From: a plasmid
DNA: 64,000 bases
Reading direction: 5' to 3' (one strand)
Assembly: GCF_056712565.1 (NCBI RefSeq)
Contig: NZ_JBWXXM010000004.1
In this document: positions 3,867 to 36,812 of the stretch, piece by piece
How the letters are laid out: the number at the start of each line of letters is the position of its first letter
Position numbering within the stretch: the first letter of the stretch is position 1
The notes under the pieces: model-generated
The model's input: only the letters and a program-made list of their open reading frames with translations
Told to the model about the DNA's origin: nothing
Databases searched by the model: none
Position numbers and translations under genes: made by a program

Positions 3867-4787
3867 TTATGGATTGCGCTTATGGATCTGGAAGCCGATT
3901 TTCCTGCCGTTTTTTATCTCTGAAAATTTAAGATATTCAATAGCTTCCAAATCTTTCATGGCTTTTCTGATAACGCTATTTTGCACGCTAACGGATGATT
4001 TGAGATTAAGCCTCGCTCTAAGGCGCTCAATGCTGACAGGTGCCGGGTTGGCGGGTAGAGCCTCAAAGAATGTATACAGTACCTTGGCCGTCTCTTTGCG
4101 CCCTAGTTTATCCAGCATCTTCAGCTTCAGGATTCGCTTATAGTCAACATAGTAAAGTTCAGATAGCTGTTTCTGCGGCTGGATCTCGATAACATCAAGC
4201 TCGGTATTCAGGCTGCTATATGCCAACAAGTTGACGTTAATGTTATTGAGATGACCTTTTGCCGCCGGGAAGCGGAATTTGACAACTGTCTGCTGAATGC
4301 GTGTCAGAGAGTCATCAATACTTTTACGGAACGCCTTTGAAAGGCGCTTACGTGGATAGCCGCATCGATCGGCAAACTCGGAGAATGGCAGGGTGATTAT
4401 GCCGTCATCATCAGGTGCGTAGTCAAACAACGCGGAAGTTATGCCCACCCACACCTTAAAATCAGTATCCATATCCAGGCGTGGACCATGAATTTCAATT
4501 CCCTCATAGCCTTCCTGCTCAACAATTTTGAGGCTTGATAGTTCTTCAGTTGCGTTCGTTGTGTTTGTTGTAACTGACGATCCGCGACGTAGCGCCACAT
4601 TGGTAGATTTTAAGGTTGGCACAAACACACCTAAGCGCAACAAAGCGATGGGTTGTATAGTGCTGTTGTTATTGGGCTTCAGGCTGTGGATTTCTCCTGT
4701 ATTTCCTGCAACTTCTTCAACGCTAAGGAAGCCTTTACTTTCTTCCGGCATCACGGTTTCTCCATGTGTGGCGCGGCCTGACGTCAA
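3867..4787 (-). CDS. repA: RepA plasmid replication initiator (iteron-binding)
   Basis: 306-aa ORF flanked by iteron arrays on both sides; RepA-like motifs (GPRLDMDTDFKVW); alternative start at 4751. Confidence 0.8.
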   Translation of the reverse strand: MTSGRATHGETVMPEESKGFLSVEEVAGNTGEIHSLKPNNNSTIQPIALLRLGVFVPTLKSTNVALRRGSSVTTNTTNATEELSSLKIVEQEGYEGIEIHGPRLDMDTDFKVWVGITSALFDYAPDDDGIITLPFSEFADRCGYPRKRLSKAFRKSIDDSLTRIQQTVVKFRFPAAKGHLNNINVNLLAYSSLNTELDVIEIQPQKQLSELYYVDYKRILKLKMLDKLGRKETAKVLYTFFEALPANPAPVSIERLRARLNLKSSVSVQNSVIRKAMKDLEAIEYLKFSEIKNGRKIGFQIHKRNP

Positions 4788-4835
4788 TTTGGATGGCTGT
4801 TATCAACAGCTGTGAATATTCAGACTCTAAAATCG

Positions 4836-4933
4836 CTTACAGTCAATGTTTCTGTCGCGTATAGTCAACAATAAATCGCGTGCAGTCAACAATAAATCGT
4901 GCACAGTCAACATAAAATCGCGTATAGTCAATG
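4836..4933. repeat. origin iterons, 5 copies at about 21-bp spacing
   Basis: CGCGTATAGTCAAC-type repeats at 4836, 4857, 4877, 4898, 4919 directly upstream of repA. Confidence 0.75.
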
Positions 4934-4935
4934 TT

Positions 4936-5043
4936 GATCCCATTTCAGGCCAGTAATGACGCGGCTTACAGCGATCCGGGATCTTCTTTGGATCTTCCTA
5001 GGTTCTCTTTAGGATCTGTTTATTGGATCTATGCTGTGGATAA
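4936..5043. promoter_or_regulatory. origin-associated GATC cluster (6 Dam sites) and DnaA box
   Basis: GATC at 4936, 4973, 4980, 4991, 5013, 5026; TGTGGATAAG at 5035-5044 is the reverse complement of DnaA box TTATCCACA. Confidence 0.65.
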
Positions 5044-5086
5044 GTTGAATAAACCGGCCAACAAAGCCGGTTGGAAGGAAGTCATA

Positions 5087-5479
5087 TTATTCTACGCTTT
5101 CGATAAGAAGACCATGTTCATAACATTTAAGCTCATCGCCTTCATACAGGAATTGGTATCCAATACCACCATTTTCATGGACATTAGGGAATAACTCATA
5201 ACTCACTGAAGAGCAAATCACACCAATGCAGCGATCAACGCCTTCTCGTTCTTCAGTGCTGAAAAAATCCTCTTCGGTAAGAACATGAGTACATTGCTCA
5301 TCAGCATAGGTCGGAAATACATGCTCGATGCAATCCGGGTGTTTTAAACCAAGCTGATCGGCAAGCTCGAAAGCATGACGGTATTGTTCAGATCCTGGCT
5401 TGCCAACAGTGATGTGCTCAATTTTGTAGATTGAAGTCGCTTTGTTGATAGTTTGCTTTACTGTTACTTTATCAGACAT
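5087..5479 (-). CDS. hypothetical protein (upfA-like position)
   Basis: 130-aa ORF upstream of repA origin in same orientation as neighbours. Confidence 0.5.
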   Translation of the reverse strand: MSDKVTVKQTINKATSIYKIEHITVGKPGSEQYRHAFELADQLGLKHPDCIEHVFPTYADEQCTHVLTEEDFFSTEEREGVDRCIGVICSSVSYELFPNVHENGGIGYQFLYEGDELKCYEHGLLIESVE

Positions 5480-5742: not shown

Positions 5743-6079
5743 TACCCGCCGCAACCAGTTGTTTCTGAACTTCAGCTTTTCGTTCCATTTGCCTGTCAGC
5801 ATATTTGGCTTGTTCTGATTCATTTTTCACTTCCTGGCTGTGAAAATGTTGCTCTGCTTTGTTCATCGTCTCAATGGTCTGGTTAAGATCCATTATTGAC
5901 TTATCACGTTCCTTAACAGCCTGATCAAGACTGCCAATTTTCTCCATGGCTTGCTTTAGCTGATGACGTTCCCATGCAAACCCAGCACCAACAAGTGCGC
6001 AAATCAGAACAAGAACACCAGTAGCAGCAAGTTTCTCCTTCAAAGACAAAGCTGTTTTTAACGTAGAAAAGAATGACAT
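5657..6079 (-). CDS. i-spanin-like (Rz-like) membrane coiled-coil protein
   Basis: N-terminal TM segment GVLVLICALVGAGFAW then coiled-coil; AGGAGG RBS before ATG at 6079; overlapped by lipoprotein ORF. Confidence 0.5.
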   Translation of the reverse strand: MSFFSTLKTALSLKEKLAATGVLVLICALVGAGFAWERHQLKQAMEKIGSLDQAVKERDKSIMDLNQTIETMNKAEQHFHSQEVKNESEQAKYADRQMERKAEVQKQLVAAGNVRQRIPADTQRLLRESISEFNADADKG

Positions 6080-6118
6080 GTCTTCCTCCTGAAGAAAAAT
6101 TATCAATGAAGTCCTTTG

Positions 6119-6904
6119 TTACTGTGCCGCTTTGTTTAATTCATCAAGAACAGAATCAGGAACCAAAGCGGCAACTGCGCTGGCTGTGCTGGCCTTATTT
6201 GCTGATGCTTCCGCAAGCGCGGTACCGATAGCATGGTTATAAGCAGTTATGGCTACGTTGGCGCTTTCATTCGCTCGTTCATACTGCTGTTGTAACGCAG
6301 TTGTGGGCGCTGTTGTCTGGTTGAAAACAACCCCAAACTGTTCAGTTGCTACTTTCAGAGATTCAATTTGCTCTTCTGTTAGTGCTGGTGGGGGAGTGGC
6401 AGTGCCGCCGCCTGAACCAGAGCCTGACGAGCTTCCTGAGCCAGTGTTAAGGGTCTGGTTAATCTCCCCCATTGCAGCGACTAAACTTGATGTATTAAGC
6501 GCGTTAACAGCGTCCTCAAGCGATTTAGTAATATTCACATCACCAATGGCAATAGAGATCGGCAGTTCTGAAACTTCTCGCTCATTAGCACGGCAGTAAA
6601 CATCCCAACCAATATCGAGTTGAAGCAGCATTGACAGATCTGCATAACCAGCCAACAGGTCCGCGTGCTTAGTTGCCAGTTCTCCAATGTTCGTTAAGCC
6701 GGTTGTGGTTGTTCTGATCGTTGAAACATAGCTGGTAATAGTGTCGGGATAGACAATTGTATCCAGAATTAATCCGGTCAATTCTTCTGCAAGCAGTTTT
6801 GCTGTGTTAGCACTGTTTCGTGCCGATGTTATGGCACCAGGTGTTTTCATCCCACCGGCGGCGGCCAATTTTTTATATGCGGATAACTGGTAGTCTTTTT
6901 CCAG
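6119..6904 (-). CDS. hypothetical protein with Gly/Ser-rich linker
   Basis: 262-aa ORF from ATG at 6904 (RBS GGAGAT); GSGSSSGSGSGGG linker. Confidence 0.55.
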   Translation of the reverse strand: MEKDYQLSAYKKLAAAGGMKTPGAITSARNSANTAKLLAEELTGLILDTIVYPDTITSYVSTIRTTTTGLTNIGELATKHADLLAGYADLSMLLQLDIGWDVYCRANEREVSELPISIAIGDVNITKSLEDAVNALNTSSLVAAMGEINQTLNTGSGSSSGSGSGGGTATPPPALTEEQIESLKVATEQFGVVFNQTTAPTTALQQQYERANESANVAITAYNHAIGTALAEASANKASTASAVAALVPDSVLDELNKAAQ

Positions 6905-6915
6905 CATGATATCTC

Positions 6916-7200
6916 CTAACTTACCTGAACCAGGCCGTCTCCGGACGCTACGGTAGATCCGCATGAAACAGGGTCACCAACGCATACGATCCCTTTACCA
7001 TTGACGGTAAACCATGCCCTGGTTGATATAGCTTGCCCACCGTGCGTACTGTTTCCATCGGTATGCTGTGCATATTGCTTACCATCAACTAACACTTCGA
7101 CTCCGTTGACTTTAAGTAGTGGTTCACTCTCTACAGGAGGCCTGGATGGGAATCCTCCGTGCCCCGAACAAATGCTGTCTTTTGTTGCAATACTTGCCAC
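6916..7200 (-). CDS. PAAR-like small protein
   Basis: 94-aa ORF with HGG and GDPVSCG motifs reminiscent of PAAR spike-tip domains. Confidence 0.4.
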   Translation of the reverse strand: MASIATKDSICSGHGGFPSRPPVESEPLLKVNGVEVLVDGKQYAQHTDGNSTHGGQAISTRAWFTVNGKGIVCVGDPVSCGSTVASGDGLVQVS

Positions 7201-24794: not shown

Positions 24795-26057
24795 ATGATC
24801 ACTTCAGCACAAAACCAATCAATCGAAAATGTATCTATCCCTGACGTCCTGAATGCCGGTATCCCGGCCATTATCCAGAACATCCGGGCCGCGCAACGCC
24901 GCGTTAGTTGTGATGACCTCACAGCGCGTTTTTTTGATAATGCGGTTCAGTCAGCGGAGATGCTTCACGCACAGCTTATTGATGTTTATAACGCAGAAGC
25001 TGATAGCCATAACTCCCTGGTAGATGCAGCTGAAAATATGCAGTTGGATCTCGGTCTGAAGGGTAAAGAAATTGAAGAGCTTCAGCTACAAATTGAACAT
25101 TTGAAACGCCAGCAACAGGACGCGATCGACGATGCGACGCATGACGCCAACCAGCGTGCTGATAATGCCGAACGTATAAGCATTGAGCTGGAAACAAAAC
25201 TCAATGAAATGACCGCGATGGTTGAACTGCGGAACTCACAGATTTCAACGCTAAAATCTCAATATAAAGAGATCATGAAACTTGATCCTTTTAACCTTGA
25301 GAAACGCTATAACAAAGCTAAAAGCGAGCGACAGGAACTGCGTAAGCAGGTCGCCGACCTTAACCAACAGCTCAAAAAAACTATTAAAGATGCAAGCGAA
25401 GCGCGCGTGGCATTTGCTAATAAAAAAGCAGAGGTTACCGCGCTGGTTAATGAGAATGCCAAATTTGCGACGCTCAAGAAGGAAATGTATGGCATTACTG
25501 AGCGCCGTTTCCCTGCAAGCAAACTTCATCCGACGTTAGGGCAAATCTCCTTCTTCCCGCGCCTCCTGGCTTATGGGATCTCATCGCCTAAAGAGTTCAA
25601 TAACGAGCGTCCTTATATCGTTTCTAAGCTGGACTTTGCTTATCAGTTCTGCTGCGACATGGGCTATGCCATTGATATCCGAATCAACGAATGGTTGATG
25701 CCAAACTTCCAGCCGTTGGCAATTTTCCGCGAGTTCCAGCCGGAAGGTTGGGTAGAGTTCTTCCATGAATTGATCTGTAAAGAGATGGAAAGCCGCCGCC
25801 CGGAATTGGTCCGTCGAGTTGAGTGGGCGCAAGAGGTTATGTTGGCAGATGCAGAGCTGCCGTTCGAACCGGAATTCATTGATGATCTGGCAACTAAAGG
25901 GTTGCATACCCTGTTTGATGTGGTTACCCGCCGTCATGAGCAGTTGGTTGTCGAATTGGGTTTAGAGGAAACAGCGGCAAGAAGACTTCTCGATGTTTGC
26001 TATGCACGTAGCGATGCATGGGAAAAAGAGAACGGCGGCACTATTTACGTCCGCTGA
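24795..26057 (+). CDS. coiled-coil protein with globular C-terminal domain
   Basis: 420-aa ORF; long heptad-like central region. Confidence 0.55.
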   Translation: MITSAQNQSIENVSIPDVLNAGIPAIIQNIRAAQRRVSCDDLTARFFDNAVQSAEMLHAQLIDVYNAEADSHNSLVDAAENMQLDLGLKGKEIEELQLQIEHLKRQQQDAIDDATHDANQRADNAERISIELETKLNEMTAMVELRNSQISTLKSQYKEIMKLDPFNLEKRYNKAKSERQELRKQVADLNQQLKKTIKDASEARVAFANKKAEVTALVNENAKFATLKKEMYGITERRFPASKLHPTLGQISFFPRLLAYGISSPKEFNNERPYIVSKLDFAYQFCCDMGYAIDIRINEWLMPNFQPLAIFREFQPEGWVEFFHELICKEMESRRPELVRRVEWAQEVMLADAELPFEPEFIDDLATKGLHTLFDVVTRRHEQLVVELGLEETAARRLLDVCYARSDAWEKENGGTIYVR

Positions 26058-26079
26058 TAGTTACAGCGTCACTTTTAAT

Positions 26080-26110
26080 GCTGGTGGAGTGCGCCCACCA
26101 GCATTTTTTT
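26080..26110 (+). terminator. rho-independent terminator
   Basis: GCTGGTGG-AGTGCGC-CCACCAGC followed by ATTTTTTT. Confidence 0.65.
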
Positions 26111-26129
26111 CGTCCAATGAGGAGGGCAT

Positions 26130-26636
26130 TTGAGTATTTTCAATAAACACGCACACCAGGAACGTCCGTATATCGTCATAGTCGATATTGATGGAACAAT
26201 ATCAGAGGCAACTGAAGACAGACTGCATTTGCTTCCGCCACCAGGTAAAGGTGCATTAACAAAGGACTGGAACGAGTTTAATCTCGCCTGTGACACCGAT
26301 ACTCCCATCACTCCGGTTATTGATATGGTGCGCCAGTTATTTAACGTTTACACGGTCTGGTTTGTAACCGGGCGCTGTGAGATCGCAAGGGATAAAACAC
26401 GAGCCTGGCTGCGTAAGCACGTAACAAATGGGGCTGAGCCTTTGCTATCTATGCGTCCTGCCACCGATGACAGAAATGACGGCCCTGCAAAGATTGATCT
26501 CCTGAAGAAAATTGGTCTAAGTAAAATTGCGTTCGCGCTGGAAGATAAGATTGAAGTGGCGCGTGTTTTCAGGAGTCACGGCGTACTTACGTTAATGGTC
26601 AGGGAATATGAAAATGCACTTCTTCATCAACAATAA
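26130..26636 (+). CDS. HAD-superfamily phosphatase-like protein
   Basis: 168 aa with DxDGT motif (IVIVDIDGTIS). Confidence 0.55.
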   Translation: MSIFNKHAHQERPYIVIVDIDGTISEATEDRLHLLPPPGKGALTKDWNEFNLACDTDTPITPVIDMVRQLFNVYTVWFVTGRCEIARDKTRAWLRKHVTNGAEPLLSMRPATDDRNDGPAKIDLLKKIGLSKIAFALEDKIEVARVFRSHGVLTLMVREYENALLHQQ

Positions 26637-26652
26637 TTGCTCTAATAAATCT
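26636..26652 (+). promoter_or_regulatory. C1-operator-like site
   Basis: ATTGCTCTAATAAATCT right after the HAD gene stop. Confidence 0.55.
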
Positions 26653-26734
26653 TGATTTTTAAAACAGAGAAAGTGAAAATTAAAACATGCCGCAAGGCGC
26701 GGCATGTATCCAATCAATCACAGGAGCTGAAAAT

Positions 26735-26821
26735 ATGAACACGGCATTCAAAATCATTATGGCCGCGATCTATTTCTGGCTGTTCTCTATCACTTTTGGC
26801 GGCATCGTCGCACATGGGTAA
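26735..26821 (+). CDS. 28-aa hydrophobic peptide (single TM)
   Basis: MNTAFKIIMAAIYFWLFSITFGGIVAHG with AGGAG RBS 7 nt upstream; below ORF-track cutoff. Confidence 0.35.
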   Translation: MNTAFKIIMAAIYFWLFSITFGGIVAHG

Positions 26822-26830
26822 GGGGGATGT

Positions 26831-27409
26831 ATGAAAGGCGAAGTGAAAGAGCGCGGCATGATTTTTAACGATGAGATGGTCCGGGCAATTCTTGGCGGGA
26901 ATAAAACACAGACTCGCAGGATTGTTGAAGAAAAATTCTATGGACGGGCAGTGGCCGCAGAGTTGCTTGCCAAGCATTGTCCATATGGTCAACCGGGCGA
27001 TCGTATTTGGGTTCGCGAAACCTACCGGGTACATGGCAAAGCGACGGACGTCGCAACGCTGGTTTATCGCGCAAGCGTGCGTAACTCCTGGACAGAACAA
27101 ACGCACCGGGTTCCGGTCGAGGTTTGTAATAAACCAGTATCAGAAAAGTGGACGCCATCAATTCACATGCCGCGCTGGGCATCGCGCATTCTTCTGGAAA
27201 TTACCGACGTGCGTGTGGAACGGCTGCATGACATGAGCGAGGCAGATGCTAAAGCAGAAGGCGCAACTCCGGCGACGTACAAGATTACGCCATCTGAAGC
27301 TGTTTATCGCGTTGGTTTTGGTGATATCTGGCGCAGTATTTACGGGCAGGATAACTGGCTATCTAACCCGTTGGTATGGGTAATCGAGTTTAAGCGCATT
27401 CAGGAATAA
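26831..27409 (+). CDS. ASCH-domain protein (YqfB-like)
   Basis: GGNKTQTRR near N-terminus and C-terminal VWVIEFKRI resemble ASCH (GxKxxExR ... YVIEFK); alternative start 26858. Confidence 0.5.
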   Translation: MKGEVKERGMIFNDEMVRAILGGNKTQTRRIVEEKFYGRAVAAELLAKHCPYGQPGDRIWVRETYRVHGKATDVATLVYRASVRNSWTEQTHRVPVEVCNKPVSEKWTPSIHMPRWASRILLEITDVRVERLHDMSEADAKAEGATPATYKITPSEAVYRVGFGDIWRSIYGQDNWLSNPLVWVIEFKRIQE

Positions 27410-27412
27410 ACC

Positions 27413-28291
27413 GTGAGTATGCATCAAGTCGTCAGCTTTTCAGGTGGACGAACATCGGCTTATCTCGTTCATCTGATGGAAGCACAGCGAAAAGCTGGCG
27501 CTAGCGTCCATTTCATTTTTATGGATACCGGCTGTGAACATCCTCTGACGTATCGCTTTATTCGTGAGGTTGTGAAGTTCTGGAACGTACCGCTAACGGT
27601 GTTGCAGGTCGATATAAATCCAGAAATTGGGAAGCCAAATGGTTATACGGAATGGGAACCAAAGGATATTCAGACGCGAATGCCGGTGCTTAAACCGTTT
27701 ATGGACATGGTTAAAAAGTACGGTACGCCATACATCGGCGGCGCGTTCTGTACTGAAAGGCTAAAACTCACCCCTTTCACGAAATATTGCGATGACCATT
27801 TTGGGCGAGGGAATTACATCACATGGCTGGGTATTCGTGCGGACGAACCCCGTAGGCTGAAACCGAAACCGGGCGTCCGGTATCTTGCCGAACTGTCAGA
27901 TTTTGATAAGTCGGATGTTATCCGGTGGTGGCGAAAACAACCTTTTGATTTGCAAATCCCGGAGCACCTCGGGAACTGTGTTTTTTGCATCAAAAAGTCA
28001 ACGCAAAAGCTGGGGCTTGCATGTAAAGACGAACCAGGTCTGATGCGGGTTTTTAATGAACTGGTTACAGGCAAACACGTCAGGGATGGTCATCGCAGAA
28101 CAGGTAAAGACGTTATGTACCGTGGCCACCTGACGCTTGACGGGATTGCCAGAATGTATGCCGACAGTGACTACAGAAATTTGTATCAGGCGATGGTGCT
28201 GGCCAAGCGGTTTGATACTGGTTCGTGTTCCGAATCATGTGAAATCTGGGGTGACCAATTGGAGTTGAAATTCGAAGAGGTAGTGGAATGA
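27413..28291 (+). CDS. PAPS-reductase-like / PP-loop ATP pyrophosphatase family protein
   Basis: 292 aa; PP-loop SFSGGRTSAYLV near N-terminus. Confidence 0.55.
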   Translation: MSMHQVVSFSGGRTSAYLVHLMEAQRKAGASVHFIFMDTGCEHPLTYRFIREVVKFWNVPLTVLQVDINPEIGKPNGYTEWEPKDIQTRMPVLKPFMDMVKKYGTPYIGGAFCTERLKLTPFTKYCDDHFGRGNYITWLGIRADEPRRLKPKPGVRYLAELSDFDKSDVIRWWRKQPFDLQIPEHLGNCVFCIKKSTQKLGLACKDEPGLMRVFNELVTGKHVRDGHRRTGKDVMYRGHLTLDGIARMYADSDYRNLYQAMVLAKRFDTGSCSESCEIWGDQLELKFEEVVE

Positions 28292-28491
28292 CAATCGTAA
28301 AAACCCATACCGGTACCGTGATCACCAAAGATGGCCCGAAGGTAAAAAAACTGCACCAAACAGAGCGGATGTGGGTCGTTGGCAAAAACGAGTTTTACCA
28401 CAAAGAAACTGGACGCCGCCATTTTGCAGAAAATACGCGCCGCCGACTGCTGTTAGACACCATCAAGCCTATCGAGGTGAAGCATGTTTAA
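28288..28491 (+). CDS. hypothetical small protein
   Basis: 67-aa ORF, start overlaps upstream stop. Confidence 0.35.
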   Translation: MTIVKTHTGTVITKDGPKVKKLHQTERMWVVGKNEFYHKETGRRHFAENTRRRLLLDTIKPIEVKHV

Positions 28492-28723
28492 ACAGAACGA
28501 AAAAGCTATCGCTCAAATTGCTGATTATATCCCGCGTGCGTGCCGGGGTATGCAGTTGCAGGAAGCCAAAGCGCGCCTGGAGAAAAAAATTGCGCTCTAT
28601 ATTGATGACGGCTGTGATGCCGCCGTTCTTAACGCGGCGTTCGCACCAGCTCTTAACTGTCACACTCGGGAGTCTTTTTTTTCATGCATCGCAGCGCAAC
28701 TCCGCCAAGGAGGCAACCAGTGA
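28484..28723 (+). CDS. hypothetical protein ending in ..AAQLRQGGNQ
   Basis: 79-aa ORF; 3-prime junction AAGGAGGCAACCAGTGAG repeated at 29925. Confidence 0.4.
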   Translation: MFKQNEKAIAQIADYIPRACRGMQLQEAKARLEKKIALYIDDGCDAAVLNAAFAPALNCHTRESFFSCIAAQLRQGGNQ

Positions 28724-29364
28724 GTAACCGTTTTTACATGATGTGCTTGCGTGAAATTGTGGGTAATAACGCCTCATTCCATTGCCATAACGGCAATGGT
28801 TACAGTTCTGATATCGATCGCGCTCATGTTTACACGCTGGAAGAAGGCCAAAAAGCCTGGAATTGTGGACGAGATATCGATCAGCCTGTTTGCGCTGATA
28901 GCGTGGATGCAATGGCTGTGTGGCACGTTGATTGCCAGTACATCCCTACAGAAAGCCTGATTGAGTCAGATTGCACTGCGTATGTGGCCTACAAAAAAGG
29001 TAGCTGGAACGGCAACGATGTTTACTGGCTTCAACACGGTGGATTGCCAACAGATGACTTCAGTAAAGCGACCATCTTTAGCGTCGCCAACAAAAACGAA
29101 CCAGGAATAGTTTGGTTGCCATTTTCCATTGCTGATTCAGCAAAGCGCCGGACGTTCAATATCAATAACTTTAACCGCAGAACAATGGTTCAGGGCGCAG
29201 GTTTGGTCATGCCTGACTGGTTGAAAAAGCAGAACAGAAGAAAGAAGTCGCGAAGCGGGAAGGTGCGTTGGAATTGTCCGCATTGCGGAAAAATTACCTG
29301 GCAGTACAGCCCATATGATTTTGAAGGCTGTCGTGATTACAACTGTGAAGGATGGCGAGAATGA
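28719..29364 (+). CDS. Cys-rich hypothetical protein with C-terminal zinc-ribbon-like CPHC..C..C
   Basis: GTG start inside conserved junction with AAGGAGG RBS; about 215 aa. Confidence 0.45.
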
Positions 29365-29948
29365 CAATTGACTATCAGGCACTGCGAGATGCGGCAGTTG
29401 CAGTAGAAACAGAACCTATGCATCAAAATTTTGTGGCGTTTCGTATGGCGTTCACGCCATCGGTGGCACTGGCACTACTGGATGAAATTAAGCGGCTGGA
29501 AGACACAAATATTGATGCTATGTGCCGTATTGCAGAGCTTGAGACTAATCTCGCGGCGCTGGTGGCAGAGAACGCCGGACTGAAACACGCAATGGCCGTA
29601 ACTCTTGAGCATGTGTCGGTCACGGATGCAGGGCAGGCCGGAGTTGCTGCAATGATTATCAACGATGCCCTGCACCACAGCGAAACTCCAGCTACCGATG
29701 CTTTTCTAGCTGAAGTGAAGACTGAAGCACGCAAGGAAGGCGCTTATTTTGTGGCGAACAGAATGCTGGCTGCCTGGGAAGCTGGTTTTATTGATGATAC
29801 CGCGAAGAACGCCGCGGATATTGCCCGGATGATTCTTACCTCTACTGAGTTTATGGCTAATGCGCCGGAAGGCGATTTTGACCGCTCATTCTCTGATGGC
29901 GTTCTCGAAGATATCGCCGCCCAGCTTCGAAAAGGAGGCAACCAGTGA
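29352..29948 (+). CDS. Ead/Ea22-like protein, paralog A
   Basis: 198 aa; N-terminal IDYQALRDAA and ALALLDE motifs; ends ..AAQLRKGGNQ. Confidence 0.45.
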   Translation: MARMTIDYQALRDAAVAVETEPMHQNFVAFRMAFTPSVALALLDEIKRLEDTNIDAMCRIAELETNLAALVAENAGLKHAMAVTLEHVSVTDAGQAGVAAMIINDALHHSETPATDAFLAEVKTEARKEGAYFVANRMLAAWEAGFIDDTAKNAADIARMILTSTEFMANAPEGDFDRSFSDGVLEDIAAQLRKGGNQ

Positions 29949-30697
29949 GCAAGATTGACTATCAGGCACTGCGTGAGGCGGCGGAACGTGCAATTCCAGC
30001 AATGGAACGCCTGTTAATGTTGCCAGCTGATGATGATTTGTTAAGTGAACAGGAACTTAAAGATTACGGTGTGGATATTGATGCGCTCAACGCCTTCAAA
30101 TTTCTGGCCGGACCAGAAACCGTGCTGGCACTACTGGATGAACGGGAAAGAAACCAGCAATACATCAAACGCCGTGACCAGGAGAACGAGGATATTGCGC
30201 TAACGGTAGGGAAGCTGAGAGTTGAGCTTGAGGAAGTAAAACAACACGCTGAAGAATTATCCGAAACCAAGGCTGTTCGTAACCAATGGCGGCCAGATAT
30301 TTGCCCAATAACCGGACGTGCATTTTTCATGTGGATTGAGCATCCAACATTGGGAAATGTGCCGACATATGGTGGCCCATTAGATAGTTACACCATTCCA
30401 ACAAAGGACGGTGACGGTGAGTTTTCATGTGAGCGTTACGATCATGATTTTGGCGGTTGGGTAGAAAGCGAATGTCTTGGGTTATATCTGATTGATGATA
30501 GAGAACAATGCAGGGTCTACGAACTGGAGGAACGCGTTAAGGAACTGGATGCTCGGGAAATATCGCTCCCGGAACGTAGCAGCATGCTTCATCGAACAGA
30601 TTTTCACGATGATTACCAAACGGTAATGGCATACAAAGTTTCTGAGGTCATCGCTGCAATCCGCGCCGCTGGCATCCGTATCAACGGAGGTGAGTAG
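29945..30697 (+). CDS. Ead/Ea22-like protein, paralog B
   Basis: 250 aa; N-terminal IDYQALREAA and PETVLALLDE; GTG start in repeated junction. Confidence 0.45.
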   Translation: MSKIDYQALREAAERAIPAMERLLMLPADDDLLSEQELKDYGVDIDALNAFKFLAGPETVLALLDERERNQQYIKRRDQENEDIALTVGKLRVELEEVKQHAEELSETKAVRNQWRPDICPITGRAFFMWIEHPTLGNVPTYGGPLDSYTIPTKDGDGEFSCERYDHDFGGWVESECLGLYLIDDREQCRVYELEERVKELDAREISLPERSSMLHRTDFHDDYQTVMAYKVSEVIAAIRAAGIRINGGE

Positions 30698-30867
30698 TGC
30701 GTGTGGTATGTATCAGCTTGTTACCGTACCCGACTCGTTTTTGGGCTTCTGCGCTAATTGCAAAGCCACATGTCCTGATGGCTGACAACATCATCCCGGC
30801 ACCAAAGCGCCGCCATACCGGTATTGCAGCGGCACGACGAGCAGCAAAGAGACGCAGGAGAGCAAAG

Positions 30868-31046
30868 CGATGAAAAACCGTAAGGCAAAACGACTTTTTT
30901 TACAGCGGCCTGTGCGTGTGGTGGAGCTGGTTATTAGCAACCATAAGATAGCGGTACTCCATCCATTTGGTCAGGTGGCTTTTGCCGCAAAGCGTAAGCC
31001 TACTGCGTCACAGAACAGGCGGAAGAAAGGGTACGCAGTAAGATGA
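30868..31046 (+). pseudogene. small basic protein gene (paralog of next ORF) interrupted at a T9 homopolymer
   Basis: ATG at 30868 reads MKNRKAKRLF then shifts frame in T-run 30893-30901; with T8 the frame gives a 58-aa protein ending ATGA-coupled to next ORF. Confidence 0.3.
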
Positions 31047-31231
31047 AAAACCGTAAAGCAAAGATTCTGTTAGTTCGTAGAAACGCTCCTGGCGTCTGGC
31101 AGTGGGTGAGACTCAGCAACCGACGGATGGGGTTGATGAAATATTACGGGATGATGGATTGTGGTTTTTGCAAAAAGCCCAGCGCGGCGCAAAACCGCTG
31201 GAAAAACCATTTGCGCACTAAAGGAGAGTGA
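31043..31231 (+). CDS. small basic protein with Cys pair
   Basis: 62 aa MKNRKAKILLVRR...; shares N- and C-terminal motifs with the upstream frameshifted copy. Confidence 0.4.
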   Translation: MKNRKAKILLVRRNAPGVWQWVRLSNRRMGLMKYYGMMDCGFCKKPSAAQNRWKNHLRTKGE

Positions 31232-31232
31232 T

Positions 31233-31748
31233 ATGGCGTTAACACACCGCGAACTCTGTCAAATTGCGTACAAGTTCCTTAAGCGCAACGGGTTCAAGGT
31301 TTGTTTTCATGACCGCTTTATAGCTGTAACCAGTACCGGAGAACAGCCAGATGCTATGGGGTTCAGAAATTCAGCATCATGCCTGATAGAGGCGAAGTGT
31401 TCTCGTGCTGACTTGTTGGCAGATAGAAAAAAGCGTTTCCGTAAAAATCCCTCACTTGGCATGGGCGACTGGCGATTCTTTATTAGTGAGCCGGGAATTA
31501 TTTCAATTGAGGATTTACCACCTGGCTGGGGATTACTTCACGTTGTTAACGGAAGAGTACGGAAAGTACATGGGTGGCCCAAGGGTAATTGCTGTTGGGG
31601 TAATCCTGACGATAAGCCATTTACTGGAAATAAGCAGGTTGAATGCGATTACATGTTATCTGCATTAAGGCGCATGGAGTTGAGAGGGCACCTTAATGAA
31701 ATATATGACGGTGTAATTGTTAATAAGAAAGAAGGAAACGCGGCATGA
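31233..31748 (+). CDS. PD-(D/E)xK nuclease-fold protein
   Basis: 171 aa from ATG 31233 (RBS AAGGAGAG); motif ..EQPDAMGF..(12)..LIEAKCS. Confidence 0.5.
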   Translation: MALTHRELCQIAYKFLKRNGFKVCFHDRFIAVTSTGEQPDAMGFRNSASCLIEAKCSRADLLADRKKRFRKNPSLGMGDWRFFISEPGIISIEDLPPGWGLLHVVNGRVRKVHGWPKGNCCWGNPDDKPFTGNKQVECDYMLSALRRMELRGHLNEIYDGVIVNKKEGNAA

Positions 31749-32944
31749 TCACTATTACCAAAGAGCGACTGCTGACAATCAAGCAGTGGCGCGAAACATA
31801 CGGACCTGGTAGCAACGTTGTACTGCCAGCAGAAGAAGCGGAAGAGCTGGCACGGATTGCTCTGGCATCGCTGGAAGCAGAACCGGTGGCATGGACTGAT
31901 GAAGAGGAACTGCGCGATGTCAGGAAGTATGGTTTCGGTGAGATATTTCAGTGTCCGCCAGATAAATATGCGGACCCGCGTCGTGTAATCTCGCTGTATC
32001 GCGAGCTGCCAGCACCGGTAGTGCCAGATGATTGGCAACTCGTACCTAAGAAAATAACACTGGAAATGGAATGTGCTCTATCAAAAGCTGATAGCTATGA
32101 AATTGGTTGGCTATGGGCATTGGCAGCCGCACCTAAATACGAAGTACAGAACGCTAAACGCGTGCAAAACGCGCTTAACGCCTGCCGCGCCGCCATGCTT
32201 CAGTCCGGAAACTTTCGGGAAAACAAGAATTCGTCAACCAATAATTTTCGGGAAATCGCGGAAACGTCAACCAACTATCCGGCAATTCCTAGTGAGGTGT
32301 TGTCCGCAATCCTGAAGGTTGCCAGGATTCGTGCCGATTTCGATGATTTTGACGGTGACAGGCGAGGTATCGGTGATTGTCTGGATGAGGCTGAGCAAGA
32401 GCTTATCGTTACCATTAACAAATATGCCAGTCAGTTGGCAGCAGAACCGATAGCGACTAATGACGTTCGAGAGCAGCAGACAGCCGTTCCGCCAGTTCCG
32501 GAAATACAGGATGATGTCGCGCAAGCAATTGAAAATCTCAAGCAGAAGTTAGTGGAATGCAATCGCTATAACTACTGCGCAGATGCAGTTAAAGGCGTAG
32601 AGGATGCCTGCCACGCTGCCATGCTTCAGGGTAGGGAACGCCTTGTTCTGGATGCCGCTACCAGAACCGCCGCAGGAGGCGAAATGATGGATGTAAAAGA
32701 GAAGGTTTTGCAGGTGATGCGTTCCCGGGCTGCCCTGCAAGATAAAGCTCTCGGCGGGGAATATCCATTCAGGATGGCAACCTGGAATCTGCGGTTGGCA
32801 ATGGAGAAGGAATTTCCTGATGAAGAATGGCGGTCGGCAGATTTGCGCAAAATTCTTATGGAGCTGGCTAAAGATGGAACAGTATCCAAAGATACCCATG
32901 CCAGCCGGATTGGTCAGGCGGTATGGAGACTGGAGGTGAGGTAA
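31745..32944 (+). CDS. hypothetical protein with internal repeat
   Basis: 399 aa; repeated segments NALNACRAAMLQSGNFRE and GVEDACHAAMLQGRE. Confidence 0.5.
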   Translation: MITITKERLLTIKQWRETYGPGSNVVLPAEEAEELARIALASLEAEPVAWTDEEELRDVRKYGFGEIFQCPPDKYADPRRVISLYRELPAPVVPDDWQLVPKKITLEMECALSKADSYEIGWLWALAAAPKYEVQNAKRVQNALNACRAAMLQSGNFRENKNSSTNNFREIAETSTNYPAIPSEVLSAILKVARIRADFDDFDGDRRGIGDCLDEAEQELIVTINKYASQLAAEPIATNDVREQQTAVPPVPEIQDDVAQAIENLKQKLVECNRYNYCADAVKGVEDACHAAMLQGRERLVLDAATRTAAGGEMMDVKEKVLQVMRSRAALQDKALGGEYPFRMATWNLRLAMEKEFPDEEWRSADLRKILMELAKDGTVSKDTHASRIGQAVWRLEVR

Positions 32945-33020
32945 TAAGCTGGCCTGAAGCATTTGCGATTGTAGGCGTAGCTATGGCGATTGCCGCTATT
33001 TTTATCTTCTGGGGGTAACG

Positions 33021-33254
33021 ATGGGAAAATTAACTTTTGTAGTCGAATTTGAGGATGGCAAAGAGCCACCTGTTAGCGCCAATCTTGATGTTGCTGGTGG
33101 CAGGCTGGTTTCGGTTCTATTTGGTGATTACCGCGACGACTTCTTTCAGCCTGAAGAAGTTGATGTAGTGCGAGAAGCATTAAACGAGCTAAGTGTTGAT
33201 AACGATGATGCTCATGCGGAAATCATCAAAAAAATGGAACTGCTAACTCACTAA
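33021..33254 (+). CDS. hypothetical acidic small protein
   Basis: 77-aa ORF. Confidence 0.4.
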   Translation: MGKLTFVVEFEDGKEPPVSANLDVAGGRLVSVLFGDYRDDFFQPEEVDVVREALNELSVDNDDAHAEIIKKMELLTH

Positions 33255-33302
33255 ATTATCAATTATGGTGCTATCACCTACGACACCGAGAGAAAATTTA
33301 TA

Positions 33303-33425
33303 ATGTCAAAAGTAAATGTTTTGATTTTTTCAGCAATTGTTGGCTTTGGTTTTACTGCCGGAGTGCAGATTTATATTACGTGGGAAAAAATCATCAACTA
33401 CGCATGGAGTTGTTTTATTAAGTGA
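33303..33425 (+). CDS. 40-aa hydrophobic peptide
   Basis: MSKVNVLIFSAIVGFGFTAGVQIYITWEKIINYAWSCFIK; weak RBS; below ORF-track cutoff. Confidence 0.25.
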   Translation: MSKVNVLIFSAIVGFGFTAGVQIYITWEKIINYAWSCFIK

Positions 33426-33431
33426 GGTAAG

Positions 33432-33726
33432 TATGTGGAGAGGTAATAATCATGGCAAAAGCCAGATGATACTTACCGAATATAAGCTAGACCACAAAAC
33501 CAATAAATCACGCTCAGTATATTTGCTCCGGCACAATAGCCGCGTAAGAAATACCGTGCTGGAACAAAATCTGACAGTTGAAATGGATAATTGCGGGGGA
33601 TTCAAGCCAACAATTTCGCTTGATGATTTTCCTCGTGGTTTAAGCGAAAGAGAAGCAATGCTGAAATTAGCAGAATGGCTACAAAGATTAAGCATTGCTA
33701 TTGAAGATAACTGGTCTGAACCTTAA
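33432..33726 (+). CDS. hypothetical protein
   Basis: 98 aa from ATG 33432 with GAGGT RBS; ORF-track frame opens at 33337. Confidence 0.4.
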
Positions 33727-33732
33727 ATTTAT

Positions 33733-34107
33733 ATGATGACACTAAAACATTTTCTTGACCGCCCATTATGGGCGGCAGCCGCAGGCTATGACTTTAATTA
33801 TATGGATTGCATGTCTTATACTGCCAATGCATACGACCATTCGTTCATCCTGCTGTTTAATTCTTTAAGAATATTGCCGGAAACAGAAGTTGGAGAGCTT
33901 CATTTATGGCTATTGGGCTTTATCGCGGCTGTCGTTGGTATTGCTGTATGGCCTTTTATTTTCTGGCTGGTGGCTGTTGTAGTGTGGTTTAAGTGCAAGA
34001 CATACCGGAAAAAGTATTTCTTAGGTGATGGAATGACTGATATTGCCAAAATGAACATTGAAGAATGGACTAAGGAATGTGAAAAGAAATGGCGCAAAAA
34101 GAAATGA
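33733..34107 (+). CDS. membrane protein (two TM segments)
   Basis: 124 aa; LWLLGFIAAVVGIAVWPFIFWLVAVVVWF. Confidence 0.45.
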   Translation: MMTLKHFLDRPLWAAAAGYDFNYMDCMSYTANAYDHSFILLFNSLRILPETEVGELHLWLLGFIAAVVGIAVWPFIFWLVAVVVWFKCKTYRKKYFLGDGMTDIAKMNIEEWTKECEKKWRKKK

Positions 34108-34739
34108 CCAGAATCACTGAAGAGCGCATATCAGAGATTATTTCCCGTATCGAAATGTATGGTCACGGTGCTGGATATACGGCAGATGAAGTATTGGAAA
34201 TAGCCCAGCAGATGCTGGCCTTGAGACAAAAAGAGCAACATGAAAGTAATACGTGTAGATTGAATTTTGAGCATTGGCTGGAACAGCAACGCGGAAAAAT
34301 CGATGTGGACTGTGGTTGTGTGTCCACTGAAACATTCATGCACTGGCTGCGGGTAGCTTACGAGGCTGGCAACTATCCGGATATTCCGGATAGTTCGGTG
34401 CCAGCGCCAGGAAAGGGCGTCACCGGTGAACGTATCCGCATTAAGCCGCATGTTTATCGCGAACTGGTTAACCGTCTCCACGATACAGCGATCAAGTGTG
34501 CTGGCACCCAGCAATTACGAGAAAGAATTAGCCGTGTTTTGGGCGACGTTATTACACCAGATCATCATAAACAAGCCGAGAAAAGTGACCTGGAAAGGTG
34601 TCACCTTGAGGCGGCATTAAACATTAAGCCGGGGCATACGCTTGGCATTATTGATGCACTATTGGTTCATAAGATGGCCAGGGCTTTATTGCCGCTGGTG
34701 GCTGAAAAGCATGAGGTGGACCATGCCAACGAAAGCTGA
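34089..34739 (+). CDS. hypothetical protein
   Basis: 216-aa ORF. Confidence 0.45.
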   Translation: MAQKEMTRITEERISEIISRIEMYGHGAGYTADEVLEIAQQMLALRQKEQHESNTCRLNFEHWLEQQRGKIDVDCGCVSTETFMHWLRVAYEAGNYPDIPDSSVPAPGKGVTGERIRIKPHVYRELVNRLHDTAIKCAGTQQLRERISRVLGDVITPDHHKQAEKSDLERCHLEAALNIKPGHTLGIIDALLVHKMARALLPLVAEKHEVDHANES

Positions 34740-35006
34740 ATTACAGGTGCGCGTAGATGAGCTGAAAAAGAGAACGCGAGCCTCAAAAAAATGCTGTCGC
34801 GGGCGGAAAGGGAATTATCAGGCAAATTATTGCCAGAAGAACTGCCACCAGCAGATATACTAGATCGAGTGTCCCAGTGGATGAAGTCTTTTGGTTTACC
34901 GTGGGAGGCTTTTTGGTGCTACGACCATCGCAGATGGTGTGATGAACTTGATAGCAATTTTCCCTACTTTGCGGAAGGGAACACCTGCCCTCAATGCAGG
35001 GGATAG
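34729..35006 (+). pseudogene. small coiled-coil / Cys-containing protein split by frameshift at an A-run
   Basis: Frame 1 MPTKAELQVRVDELKK.. and frame 2 ..ENASLKKMLSRAERELSGK..CPQCRG join into one about 93-aa protein if one extra A is present at 34771-34775. Confidence 0.3.
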
Positions 35007-35341
35007 CATTTGACGAAATCGATCACCCTATCCTGAACTTCAGAAAGAAGGTCTTTTTCACGCGCCAGGACGTCAGGATATTGACGTTCTGGCCTTACCA
35101 GATGCCGGAGCTTCCCATTAAGCAGAATGGCCTCAGAAAACACTTTTACGCTGTGCTTTATCCCCTCTGTTTCACTTTTCAGCGTCAAAATAAAGCGCAA
35201 TTGCTTATTAGCCTGATTCGGATTCAATACACGAATTTGCAGTTCGTCTATGCTGTTTCGCAATGGGATTGATGCCACCACACTGGTGCAGTCTCTGATT
35301 GTCTGAATTGAACGGCTAACATTGAGAACGTTATTGTGCAT
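34991..35341 (-). CDS. hypothetical protein on opposite strand
   Basis: 116-aa ORF with balanced composition, convergent with upstream plus-strand genes; no strong RBS. Confidence 0.3.
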   Translation of the reverse strand: MHNNVLNVSRSIQTIRDCTSVVASIPLRNSIDELQIRVLNPNQANKQLRFILTLKSETEGIKHSVKVFSEAILLNGKLRHLVRPERQYPDVLAREKDLLSEVQDRVIDFVKCYPLH

Positions 35342-35373
35342 GTGCCTGATCCACTAACTCCTGGAGGTTTCTT

Positions 35374-35625
35374 GTGTCAGATCGAAATATAGCAGCTAAA
35401 AGCCAGGAAGAGCGAGACAAGGTGAACGTAGACCTTGCCGCCAGCGGCGTTGCTTACAAAGAACGGCTGAATATACCTGTGATTGCAGAGCAGGTGGCCC
35501 GTGAGCAACCGGAAAACCTGCGCGCCTATTTCATGGAACGGCTACGGCACTACCGGCAGTTAAGCCTCCAGTTGCCAAAAGGGAGCGATCCGGTGTATCA
35601 GAACGAGGATGCACCAAAAAAATAA
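35374..35625 (+). CDS. hot: DNA polymerase III theta-subunit homolog (HolE-like)
   Basis: 83 aa from GTG with GGAGG RBS; [43 protein letters not shown] matches HolE. Confidence 0.8.
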
Positions 35626-35712
35626 CGGCAAGATGGGGGAGAAATGTGATTAGCCCCCAGCGTGGCGCGCCTACAAACCCCGCTTTCACAAACTATGCCT
35701 TTTCAATGTATA

Positions 35713-35728
35713 CTGTATGAATAAACAG
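35713..35728. promoter_or_regulatory. LexA box (SOS operator) upstream of humD
   Basis: CTGTATGAATAAACAG fits CTGT-N8-ACAG, about 20 bp before the humD start. Confidence 0.75.
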
Positions 35729-35748
35729 TATCATTGAGGTAAAACGCT

Positions 35749-36138
35749 ATGGGCTTCCCTTCTCCTGCGGCGGATTATGTTGAAAGCCGAATTTCTCTTG
35801 ATCAGCAGATAATTAGACATCCATCAGCAACCTACTTCATGCGGGCAGCTGATAGCCATCACCGTGAGGGAATATTGCAGGGTGCTTTGCTGGTGGTTGA
35901 TTCTTCGCTTACTCCAGTTGATGGTTCGCTGCTTGTGTGCGCTATGGAGGGTGAATATCGCATAAAGAGATACAGGAAGTATCCGCGCCAGCACCTGGAG
36001 GATTTAAGCACCGGGAAGAAAGAGGCGTTACCAGTAGATGACGATGGATGCACGGGCAGTAATGCTGTTTTTGGTGTGATCACTCATGTCATCAATGATG
36101 CCCGAAGTGGGGAGTTTGATGATTGTCCGGTTATTTAA
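35749..36138 (+). CDS. humD: UmuD-like SOS mutagenesis protein
   Basis: 129 aa; LexA/UmuD-type self-cleaving fold (CAMEGEYRIKRY); preceded by LexA box. Confidence 0.75.
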   Translation: MGFPSPAADYVESRISLDQQIIRHPSATYFMRAADSHHREGILQGALLVVDSSLTPVDGSLLVCAMEGEYRIKRYRKYPRQHLEDLSTGKKEALPVDDDGCTGSNAVFGVITHVINDARSGEFDDCPVI

Positions 36139-36210
36139 GCTGCAAAGGGCTGGTGCTTTATGCCTGTGAGGTTTATAATTGTGTACACATAACGAGTACA
36201 CGAGGTGTTT

Positions 36211-36432
36211 ATGCAATCCATTAACTTCCGTACCGCGCGCGGCAACCTTTCTGAAGTGCTCAACAATGTTGAAGCCGGGGAAGAGGTTGAAATCACCCGC
36301 AGAGGCCGTGAGCCAGCAGTAATTGTCAGCAAGGCTACTTTCGAAGCCTACAAAAAAGCGGCGCTGGATGCTGAATTTGCATCCCTGTTTGACACCCTGG
36401 ACTCCACCAACAAGGAACTGGTTAACCGATAA
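36211..36432 (+). CDS. phd: Phd antitoxin
   Basis: [49 protein letters not shown], 73 aa. Confidence 0.9.
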
Positions 36433-36812
36433 TGAGGCATATATCACCGGAAGAACTTATTGCGCTTCATGATGCGAATATAAGCCGCTACGGCGGCCTG
36501 CCTGGCATGTCAGATCCGGGCAGGGCAGAGGCCATTATCGGGAGAGTTCAGGCCAGAGTTGCCTACGAAGAGATCACCGACCTTTTCGAAGTCTCCGCCA
36601 CCTACCTGGTGGCTACAGCGAGAGGGCATATATTCAATGATGCCAATAAGCGTACCGCGCTAAACAGCGCGCTGCTATTTCTACGCCGTAACGGGGTGCA
36701 GGTATTTGATTCACCTGAACTGGCAGACCTTACTGTAGGCGCTGCGACTGGCGAGATATCTGTATCTTCTGTCGCCGACACGTTACGTAGATTGTATGGT
36801 TCTGCGGAGTAG
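36432..36812 (+). CDS. doc: Doc toxin (Fic-fold kinase)
   Basis: 126 aa; start overlaps phd stop; Doc motif [23 protein letters not shown]. Confidence 0.9.

Follow-up and report, generated by a model that had tools for sequence, protein, structure and literature searches.

A variable region of a P1-type phage-plasmid probably carries lambdoid early cassettes under C1 control, with an Oad2/EaE-family candidate inhibitor and a predicted PD-(D/E)xK nuclease fold

Eight highly variable regions have been described in P1-like elements, one of which, region 8, extends from pmgT to humD (PMC9603915), and RD-5 was defined between pap and lxr in these elements (PMC6906374). Variable regions elsewhere in the P1 family hold sim and res-mod (PMC9603915), and the P1 genes pmgT, pmgU, pmgV, upfN, upfO and hot are non-essential by CRISPR interference and deletion (PMC10695390). 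A second kind of described system is the early-left 'ea' or exo-xis region that lambdoid phages carry, such as eaA–eaI of P22, ea22 of lambda and the variants in Shiga toxin (Stx) phages. In proteins of the Ea22 family, unrelated C-terminal domains follow a shared N-terminus and coiled coil (PMC10834534); Ea22 of lambda and of Stx phages favors lysogeny, and lambda Ea22 is tetrameric (PMC7093339, PMC10834534). In phage HK446, gp27 (Oad2) is an inhibitor that binds the P2 OLD nuclease; Oad2 is a relative of EaE, at times fused to EaD/Ea22, and a 54% identical homologue from HK75 fails to inhibit OLD (bioRxiv 10.64898/2026.07.10.737580). Here, we analyzed a 64,000-nucleotide stretch of an NCBI RefSeq plasmid contig (NZ_JBWXXM010000004.1 of assembly GCF_056712565.1), hereafter the window, in which a block of 7054 bp (28288–35341) lies between a PAPS-reductase-like gene and hot, with a P1-type phage-plasmid backbone on either side.

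The block is very probably the known variable region of P1, with lambdoid early cassettes inside and under the control of the C1 repressor. The original prediction picked out a genuine feature and interpreted it roughly correctly, but the region is of an ordinary kind, with no support for calling it new or unusual: the interval is published as region 8/RD-5 and the exact sequence is present in five plasmids; the region, its variability and its sequence are already public, and no new category is opened. What this analysis adds is the probable lambdoid origin of the cassettes, the junction repeats as their likely mechanism of exchange, the assignment of one gene product (g04) to the Oad2 family, the verification by modeling of a predicted nuclease fold in another (g09), a predicted orphan fold in a third (g03) and the coding status of the leftward gene g18.

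Seventeen rightward open reading frames (ORFs; g01–g17, 28288–35006, plus strand) and one leftward ORF (g18, 34991–35341, minus strand) were found in the block. The original prediction had counted about 14 coupled ORFs, which was too few, whereas its impression of tight packing was right: a start codon overlaps the preceding stop codon at 11 junctions (ATGA/GTGA type or longer), including that between the PAPS-reductase-like gene and g01, and the other gaps are mostly 1–7 nucleotides. The distance from pap to hot was 8737 bp in the window (26636 to 35374), compared to 2273 bp in P1 (84293 to 86567), in line with the expectation of more ORFs than in the P1 interval. PHROG families matched 16 of the 17 rightward ORFs, the exception being the 31-residue g11, as well as g18, and every one of these families is of 'unknown function'. 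Public annotation of the block sequence likewise reads 'hypothetical protein' almost throughout. Five ORFs (g06, g07, g11, g13 and g17) are unannotated by RefSeq in an identical plasmid; four of them match PHROG, in families that may rest on the annotation of close phages. The flanks carry the P1 genes pmgS, pap, hot, humD, phd/doc, pdcB, lpa and pacA and are 95–97% identical to P1, P7, RCS47 and SJ46, and the annotation of the identical plasmid includes pap, hot, humD and phd/doc; the parts at 26001–26922 and 35380–36500 showed 85–97% identity to P1.

A C1 repressor operator, equivalent to Op88/OpmgT of P1, is located at 26636–26652 on the plus strand (ATTGCTCTAATAAATCT, one mismatch to the consensus) and overlaps predicted pmgT promoters. 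The 100-nucleotide region around it differs from the P1 Op88/OpmgT promoter region by two mismatches; the P1 annotation of the corresponding site gives OpmgT with the promoters P1pmgT and P2pmgT, and in the P7 record this site is given as the operator of the 'hea' operon. Downstream lie an ASCH-like gene outside the block (26831–27409, plus strand; PGAP 'ASCH domain-containing protein'), which is a homologue of the N-terminal part of P1 PmgT (phrog_874 for both), and then the left neighbor of the block, which encodes a PAPS-reductase-like ATP pyrophosphatase (27413–28291, plus strand; phrog_424 at 2e-92). The right boundary is hot, annotated by PGAP as a DNA polymerase III theta homologue (35374–35625, plus strand; DNA 85% identical to P1 hot). 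Neither promoter-like sites (7, compared to 12.1 expected) nor terminator-like sites (10, compared to 9.8 expected) were enriched within the block. Because the operator and promoter are conserved and the block shows no excess of promoters or terminators, we infer one C1-repressed operon that would comprise the ASCH-like PmgT homologue, the PAPS-reductase-like gene and g01–g17. The -22 boxes of P1 late promoters were absent both ahead of hot and within the block. Early expression had been proposed before and is plausible from the near-identical Op88 region directly upstream; it would occur on infection or induction.

The leader after the operator (26685–26821) contains a GC-rich palindrome (26685–26707) that is terminator-like on the minus strand, together with an unannotated ORF of 44 residues with a hydrophobic C-terminus, both conserved with P1. 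Across the whole window, 15 matches to the C1 operator consensus with at most three mismatches were found, compared to 0.33 expected by chance, and paired matches occur at 10804/10815 and 42806/42889; this distribution agrees with a C1 regulon that is dispersed, as in P1. The PAPS-reductase-like protein gave weak SspD-, DndC- and BrxP-type matches in PADLOC, which suggest an ATP pyrophosphatase of the DNA-modification type. The LexA-regulated gene lxr, which runs leftward between hot and humD in P1, is absent here, where the gap between hot and humD is 123 bp (35625–35749).

The protein families of the block are those of the lambdoid early-left regions, namely Ead/Ea22, EaE, the EaA-type N-terminus and the families of g01, g02, g03 and g09. 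In P22, eaA, eaD and eaE, which are homologues of g10, g05 and g04, respectively, are located between xis and abc2, and in a chromosomal prophage genes of the g01, g02, Ead and g09 types lie between the immunity region and xis/int. Stx-converting lambdoid phages share 28–46% of the block, and the DNA identity of Stx phages and chromosomal prophages to it is 92–98%. The lambdoid regions also show the same mosaicism, in which a common N-terminus and coiled coil precede variable C-terminal domains. The setting is different: the lambdoid cassettes are under the lambda PL/N system and beside int/xis and recombination genes, whereas here they are under the P1 C1 repressor and beside hot and humD. 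Because of the matches to Escherichia coli prophages, Stx phages and P22, the block appears, judging from its sequence, to be lambdoid early-left 'ea' cargo placed in a P1 backbone.

With the variable region between pap and hot/lxr in the P1 family, the block shares its position, the conserved flanks and the C1 operator directly after pap. Its gene content is a mosaic that differs among P1, P7, RCS47 and this element: in P1, only g16 has a counterpart (in part, approximately PmgU), P7 shares five genes and RCS47 shares nine, and g07, g08 and g14–g18 are common to the window and RCS47. These counts bear out the view of the block as an accessory insert that is variable relative to P1. This element is without pmgV, upfM, upfN, upfO and lxr of P1, and the P1 proteins UpfM, UpfN, UpfO, PmgV and Lxr and the right-end upf genes of P7 had no counterpart in the block at a BLASTP E-value of 0.05 or less. 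In the P7 'hea' operon (upf86.8–upf91.7), upf87.6 and upf89.0 correspond to g03 and g09, while upf88.3 and upf89.5 correspond to parts of g04, g05, g10 and g16. Compared to P7, this element is longer and has the PAPS reductase, g01, g02 and an intact EaE/Oad2-type g04; g10 and g16, which are deletion hybrids in P7, are separate here.

Homology to P1, P7 and RCS47 starts or stops at 21 breakpoints within the block. Nine of these fall in short internal direct repeats, compared to 1.4 expected (P about 4e-06), and five more at gene boundaries. The repeats at the cassette borders are 18–40 nucleotides long and encode ALLDE, AAQLRKGGNQ plus a ribosome-binding site, or ACRAAMLQ. The first, D10 (CTGGCACTACTGGATGAA, encoding LALLDE), is an 18-nucleotide direct repeat on the plus strand with two 100% identical copies at 29469–29486 and 30125–30142. 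The second, D2, is a 24-nucleotide repeat on the plus strand (32180–32203 and 32606–32629, 92% identical) that encodes ACRAAMLQ and marks the module borders of g10; homology blocks with P7 and RCS47 begin or end at 32177, 32634 and 32629. The third, D3, is a direct repeat (28688–28727 and 29913–29952) made up of the AAQLRQGGNQ tail at the C-terminus of g02 plus the ribosome-binding site and GTG of the next gene. As the breakpoints fall on short junction repeats, the repeats would act as exchange points for the cassettes.

P7 provides two examples. Its homology to the window stops at 29486 and restarts at 30125, with an overlap of 18 nucleotides in P7, so that Upf88.3 is the hybrid to be expected from recombination between g04 and g05, with the N-terminus of g04 joined to g05 exactly at CTGGCACTACTGGATGAA. 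This recombination appears to have removed the EaE/Oad2-type domain. Similarly, Upf89.5 consists of g10 (residues 1–298) and g16 (residues 52–204). Both hybrid ORFs (4644–5330 and 5844–7142 of the P7 sequence compared) can be explained by deletions that would have occurred between short repeats or modules still separate in the window.

The presence of two Ead/Ea22 paralogs, claimed at the outset, was confirmed by Pfam, in which PF13935 matched g05 (250 residues, 29945–30697, plus strand) at 1.2e-28 and g04 (195 residues, 29361–29948, plus strand) at 2.8e-07. In g04, an Ead/Ea22 N-terminal module (about residues 1–55) carrying the typical IDYQALRDAA...ALLDE is fused to an EaE/Oad2-family domain (residues 57–195). 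The C-terminal domain of g05 is a different one (phrog_11761 and phrog_1667, beside phrog_250 for g05), and g05 is 71% identical to P22 EaD over residues 62–106. Both proteins seem to fit the Ea22 pattern of a shared N-terminus and a differing C-terminus. By BLASTP, g04 shares 66% identity with P22 EaE over residues 59–192 and 32% with Oad2 (HK446 gp27) over residues 57–195, the latter at E 1.9e-09 in a set of 15 sequences. All three match phrog_614, with E-values of 1e-45 for g04, 8e-53 for Oad2 and 5e-55 for EaE. Oad2 and g04 have in common a coiled coil, the motif ETPATDAFLAEV and the C-terminal tail QLRKGGNQ, whereas an EaE-type middle region of about 55 residues is present in g04 and missing from Oad2, and g04 has the added Ead/Ea22 N-terminus. 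On these comparisons g04 is assigned to the Oad2/EaE family, which makes it a candidate for stoichiometric inhibition of a nuclease of the OLD type (ABC-ATPase/TOPRIM).

The protein of 171 residues encoded by g09 (31233–31748, plus strand), 100% identical to P7 Upf89.0, had been proposed as a PD-(D/E)xK protein, and motif, profile, model and fold search all supported this proposal. The putative catalytic signature consists of E37, P39-D40 and E53-x-K55; in an alignment of 82 diverse homologues, D40 was invariant and E37, P39, E53 and K55 were at least 90% conserved. The family is large, with 2614 representative clusters (E ≤ 0.001). A profile of the alignment matched PDB 3dnx (SPO1766) at 1.8e-05 and archaeal Hjc weakly. 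In the AlphaFold2 model (predicted local distance difference test score 95), D40 lies at the N-terminal edge of strand 41–45 and E53 in strand 48–54, with K55 just beyond. A Foldseek search with this model returned 3dnx as the top match (E 1e-06, probability 1.0), and the further matches were mostly PD-(D/E)xK nucleases (Hjc, R2 endonuclease domain, HincII, NucS, Bax1, XisH and McrC). The core fold and the E...PD...ExK signature are thus common to g09 and the branch of MmcB-like proteins (PF06319; PDB 3dnx) and archaeal Hjc; the predicted fold is restriction-endonuclease-like (alpha-beta-beta-beta-alpha-beta). Identity between g09 and 3dnx is 23%, and in g09 a further region of beta-hairpin and helix is present towards the C-terminus (residues 100–158). 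Relatives of g09 weakly matched the Pfam families Hjc, MmcB-like, UPF0102, AHJR-like and VRR_NUC, but E ≤ 0.001 was reached by only one of the 82 for MmcB-like and three of the 82 for Hjc, and g09 itself had no Pfam match even at E ≤ 10. Because g09 reaches no Pfam model while its relatives weakly match Hjc and MmcB-like, it is predicted to form an uncatalogued PD-(D/E)xK branch beside MmcB/Hjc, and we consider it a candidate branched-DNA or repair nuclease. The opinion that none of the products could be given a function is therefore outdated for g04, in phrog_614 with Oad2 and EaE, and for g09 with its MmcB/Hjc-like fold.

The gene directly upstream, g08 (31043–31231, plus strand), encodes a basic protein of 62 residues (phrog_1380 at 1e-40) that matches residues 1–61 of the 230-residue phrog_9263. 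In some phages, g08 and g09 form this single protein of 230 residues, and g09 possibly works with the basic g08. In the window the two genes are separate (31043–31748), with a TGA, one base and an ATG that has its own AAGGAG. In both the identical plasmid and a chromosomal prophage, g09 is labeled 'frameshifted' by PGAP although intact, which the fusion family probably explains. Of the 82 representatives in the alignment of the g09 family, one also bears an Ead_Ea22 domain and one shows a weak match to DUF551 (E 2.3e-03), so that the nuclease domain is found on an Ead/Ea22 scaffold, too, as its C-terminal module.

The Cys-rich zinc-ribbon protein that had been pointed out corresponds to g03 (214 residues, 28720–29364, plus strand), 97% identical to P7 Upf87.6 and composed of a beta-rich domain, a basic helix and a C-terminal zinc ribbon with four Cys. 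Of the ten Cys in g03, C186 and C189 do not vary among 70 homologues and C204 and C209 hardly do; the predicted ribbon comprises C186-x2-C189 and C204-x4-C209, with strands at 182–185 and 192–195. The protein is conserved over its full length at 39–97% identity in E. coli, Yersinia, Acinetobacter and a methanotroph. No member of the family has a Pfam domain, and modeling of g03 gives a confident predicted fold that has no solved relative.

The whole block was found with 100% identity in five E. coli plasmids of 93–100 kb (CP098993.1, NZ_CP134391.1, NZ_OY754380.1, NZ_OY757102.1 and NZ_CP148447.1). Partial matches were present in 751 plasmid records, in which they mostly span 40–80% of the block, and in 501 phage records. 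Among 5426 complete E. coli genomes, 3160 had pieces of the block at 90–99% identity, at 6086 places on chromosomes and 739 on plasmids, and the full arrangement was present in seven.

The remaining rightward genes before g10 are small. The basic protein g01 (67 residues, 28288–28491, plus strand) matches phrog_1226 over its full length (2.7e-42), is present as the exact protein on more than 1000 contigs and has a homologue among the early-left operon genes of a chromosomal prophage; g02 (79 residues, 28484–28723, plus strand; phrog_1344 at 1.1e-52) ends in the tail that forms part of D3. The small basic paralogs that had been described are g07 and g08, which are 37% identical with isoelectric points (pI) of 12.0 and 11.3, respectively; g07 (58 residues, 30870–31046, plus strand; phrog_1380) is 100% identical to an annotated gene of RCS47. 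The neighboring g06 (58 residues, 30697–30873, plus strand; phrog_13831 at 5e-40) also has a pI of 12, with an Arg-rich C-terminus.

As to function, we lean slightly towards early host takeover and counter-defense as the role of this C1-controlled region of lambdoid cassettes. Driven from Op88, a promoter repressed by C1, the rightward operon would stay silent while the phage is a plasmid prophage, and its products would be made immediately upon infection or induction. In a naive host the phage would grow without them, and each cassette would target a different function of the host or of a rival element. An anti-defense or exclusion role is plausible but putative for every block gene. In a more elaborate form, which we regard as tentative and less likely than not, the block would be a multi-target counter-defense island in which the Ead/Ea22 coiled coil serves as an oligomerizing scaffold for interchangeable effectors, g04 displaying an Oad2-type inhibitor and the proteins of other phages a g09-type nuclease or DUF551, while several neighbors, including g03, would be immunity inhibitors or effectors swapped with lambdoid prophages via the junction repeats.

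Several points weigh against this reading. None of the 18 block ORFs matched any defense-system model of PADLOC at E ≤ 0.1, a scan of all 18 against NCBIfam gave no match, and Ead_Ea22, in g04 and g05, was the sole Pfam family matched. Pfam was scanned on concatenated ORFs, which may slightly lower sensitivity, and then with g09 and g10 singly; the upstream gene that PGAP labels as ASCH also gave no match in the concatenated scan. Single-sequence searches of the PDB with g03, g04, g05, g09, g10, g12, g14, g16 and g18 returned nothing significant. The central regions of g04 and Oad2 differ and the 54% identical HK75 homologue is inactive, and therefore OLD inhibition is not transferable to g04 by homology. 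The model of a single operon with early timing is based on gene packing and on a conserved P1 operator and promoter, and the lower-GC segment g12–g15 could be an independently expressed module. Further, recombination appears to have produced g10 and the fusion ORFs of P7, and parts of the block are treated as pseudogenes by PGAP; part of the block may be inert, and the characterized Ead/Ea22 relative, lambda Ea22, is pro-lysogenic rather than anti-defense.

This last point leads to a less likely explanation, that the cassettes are developmental modulators which bias the choice between lysis and lysogeny or induction, like Ea22 of lambda and Stx phages and the exo-xis genes, and are not immunity inhibitors. 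The Ead_Ea22 signature in g04 and g05, the pro-lysogenic effect of the lambda and Stx relatives in a family that mixes a shared N-terminus with unrelated C-termini (PMC7093339, PMC10834534) and the origin of the cassettes in the same early-left operon context would all agree with this. However, P1 lysogeny is governed by C1/Coi/Ant, which is unrelated to CII/CIII of lambda, and a transplanted lambda-specific modulator would need a target in the host rather than in the phage. Moreover, only two of the 18 genes carry the signature, and the family to which the EaE-type domain of g04 belongs includes a demonstrated inhibitor of immunity.

It is rather unlikely that much of the block is transient cargo, that is, recombination products and hitch-hikers at an insertion-tolerant site with little or no function. 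One argument comes from chimeric ORFs, as in P7 Upf88.3 and Upf89.5 and in g10 (399 residues, 31745–32944, plus strand), where an EaA-like N-terminus (phrog_660/3323, residues 1–96; 38% identical to the N-terminus of P22 EaA) is followed by a middle module (phrog_14306, residues 143–297) and a C-terminal module of 86 residues (phrog_2814, residues 314–399, full-length profile), which is a free-standing gene elsewhere. PGAP splits g10 into partial pseudogenes and the 86-residue gene. The 'internal repeat' reported earlier for this protein did not hold up: only AC(R/H)AAMLQ recurs, at residues 146 and 288 (the 24-nucleotide DNA repeat), and a domain duplication was rejected, as the alignment score of 43 was within the range of shuffled sequences (30.6 ± 4.6, maximum 46). 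The label 'DUF551' that some databases give to g10 was not borne out either, no Pfam domain being found on its sequence. In addition, g17 (71 residues, 34791–35006, plus strand; C-terminal CxxC; phrog_3797 at 1.6e-44) is N-terminally short for its family, spanning profile positions 24–94 of 94, P1, though it has almost none of the block, is a successful phage, and few genomes have the exact arrangement (seven of the 5426). Against inert cargo, individual cassettes are deeply conserved as intact proteins, such as g09, with 2614 representative clusters and an invariant catalytic Asp, and g03, maintained at full length in several genera at 39–97% identity; substitutions in g18 are biased to the third codon position, and start/stop overlaps and Shine-Dalgarno sequences are preserved.

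Another possibility, which we consider improbable, is that the membrane proteins g13 and g15 and the leftward g18 are superinfection-exclusion or defense factors expressed by the prophage to the benefit of the lysogen. The membrane peptides noted in the original prediction were recovered as hydrophobic stretches in g11, g13 and g15 (maxima over 19 residues on the Kyte-Doolittle scale of 2.4, 1.8 and 2.6), but family support for g11 (31 residues, 32923–33018, plus strand), an unannotated ORF without a PHROG match, was lacking, and we regard it as a doubtful gene. The hydrophobic peptide g13 (40 residues, 33303–33425, plus strand) matches phrog_5525 at 1.2e-24 and the membrane protein g15 (124 residues, hydrophobic at about 60–95; 33733–34107, plus strand) phrog_2638 at 5e-63. 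Beside them lie the acidic g12 (77 residues, pI 4.3; 33021–33254, plus strand; phrog_3876 at 7e-53; no sequence relative in the PDB) and g14 (97 residues, 33433–33726, plus strand; phrog_1258 at 1.4e-49; 93% identical to an RCS47 gene). The GC content of the segment g12–g15 (33000–34200) is 0.38–0.40, compared to 0.47–0.53 elsewhere in the block, which suggests a different origin. This moron-like composition, the transmembrane-like segments and the sim and res-mod genes in other variable regions of the P1 family (PMC9603915) would favor a benefit to the lysogen, as would a g18 that is oriented against the operon and under purifying selection. However, g13–g15 have the same orientation as the C1-controlled operon and nearly adjoin it, neither g18 nor the stretch ahead of g13–g15 showed a sigma-70-like promoter, and PADLOC gave no matches.

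The opposite-strand ORF of 116 residues (g18, phrog_2594), divergent from hot, was rightly singled out. Compared to an 88% identical homologue, it has 38 substitutions, distributed 7/4/27 over the codon positions, and because 27 of the 38 are at third positions, it is a real leftward gene under purifying selection. An ORF of 92 residues antisense to it on the plus strand was rejected as coding, as substitutions pile up at its first codon position. The homologues of g18 are all at least 88% identical and all on P1-like contigs, and the homologue search found neither distant relatives nor a domain. The gene always adjoins hot, whereas the genes on its other side vary; it sits on the opposite side of hot from the position of lxr in P1. 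We regard g18 as a separately transcribed leftward gene linked to hot, and as a lead beside g04 and g09. A match to Rfam mir-67 (35343–35427, minus strand) was below threshold (25.3 bits compared to a gathering score of 53, E 0.044) and was regarded as chance.

Finally, morphogenetic roles in the virion, which the P1 names pmgT/U/V ('putative morphogenetic') would imply and to which the PmgU homology of g16 (216 residues, 34089–34739, plus strand; EaA-type N-terminus and PmgU-homologous C-terminus, residues 104–204 being 96% identical to P1 PmgU; phrog_21459, which also matches PmgU) and the term 'morphogenetic protein' in some database entries might point, are very improbable, as pmgT, pmgU and pmgV are non-essential in P1 (PMC10695390), the content is swapped wholesale between otherwise near-identical P1-like phages, and the cassettes come from lambdoid early operons rather than structural modules.

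P1-like phage-plasmids, common in E. coli and Salmonella of clinical and animal origin, carry resistance genes, and their variable regions decide which hosts they enter and persist in. For this family, the analysis replaces a string of 'hypothetical proteins' by a short list that can be tested: g04 as a candidate inhibitor, the predicted nuclease fold of g09, the predicted orphan fold of g03 and the junctions that mark the borders of the cassettes.

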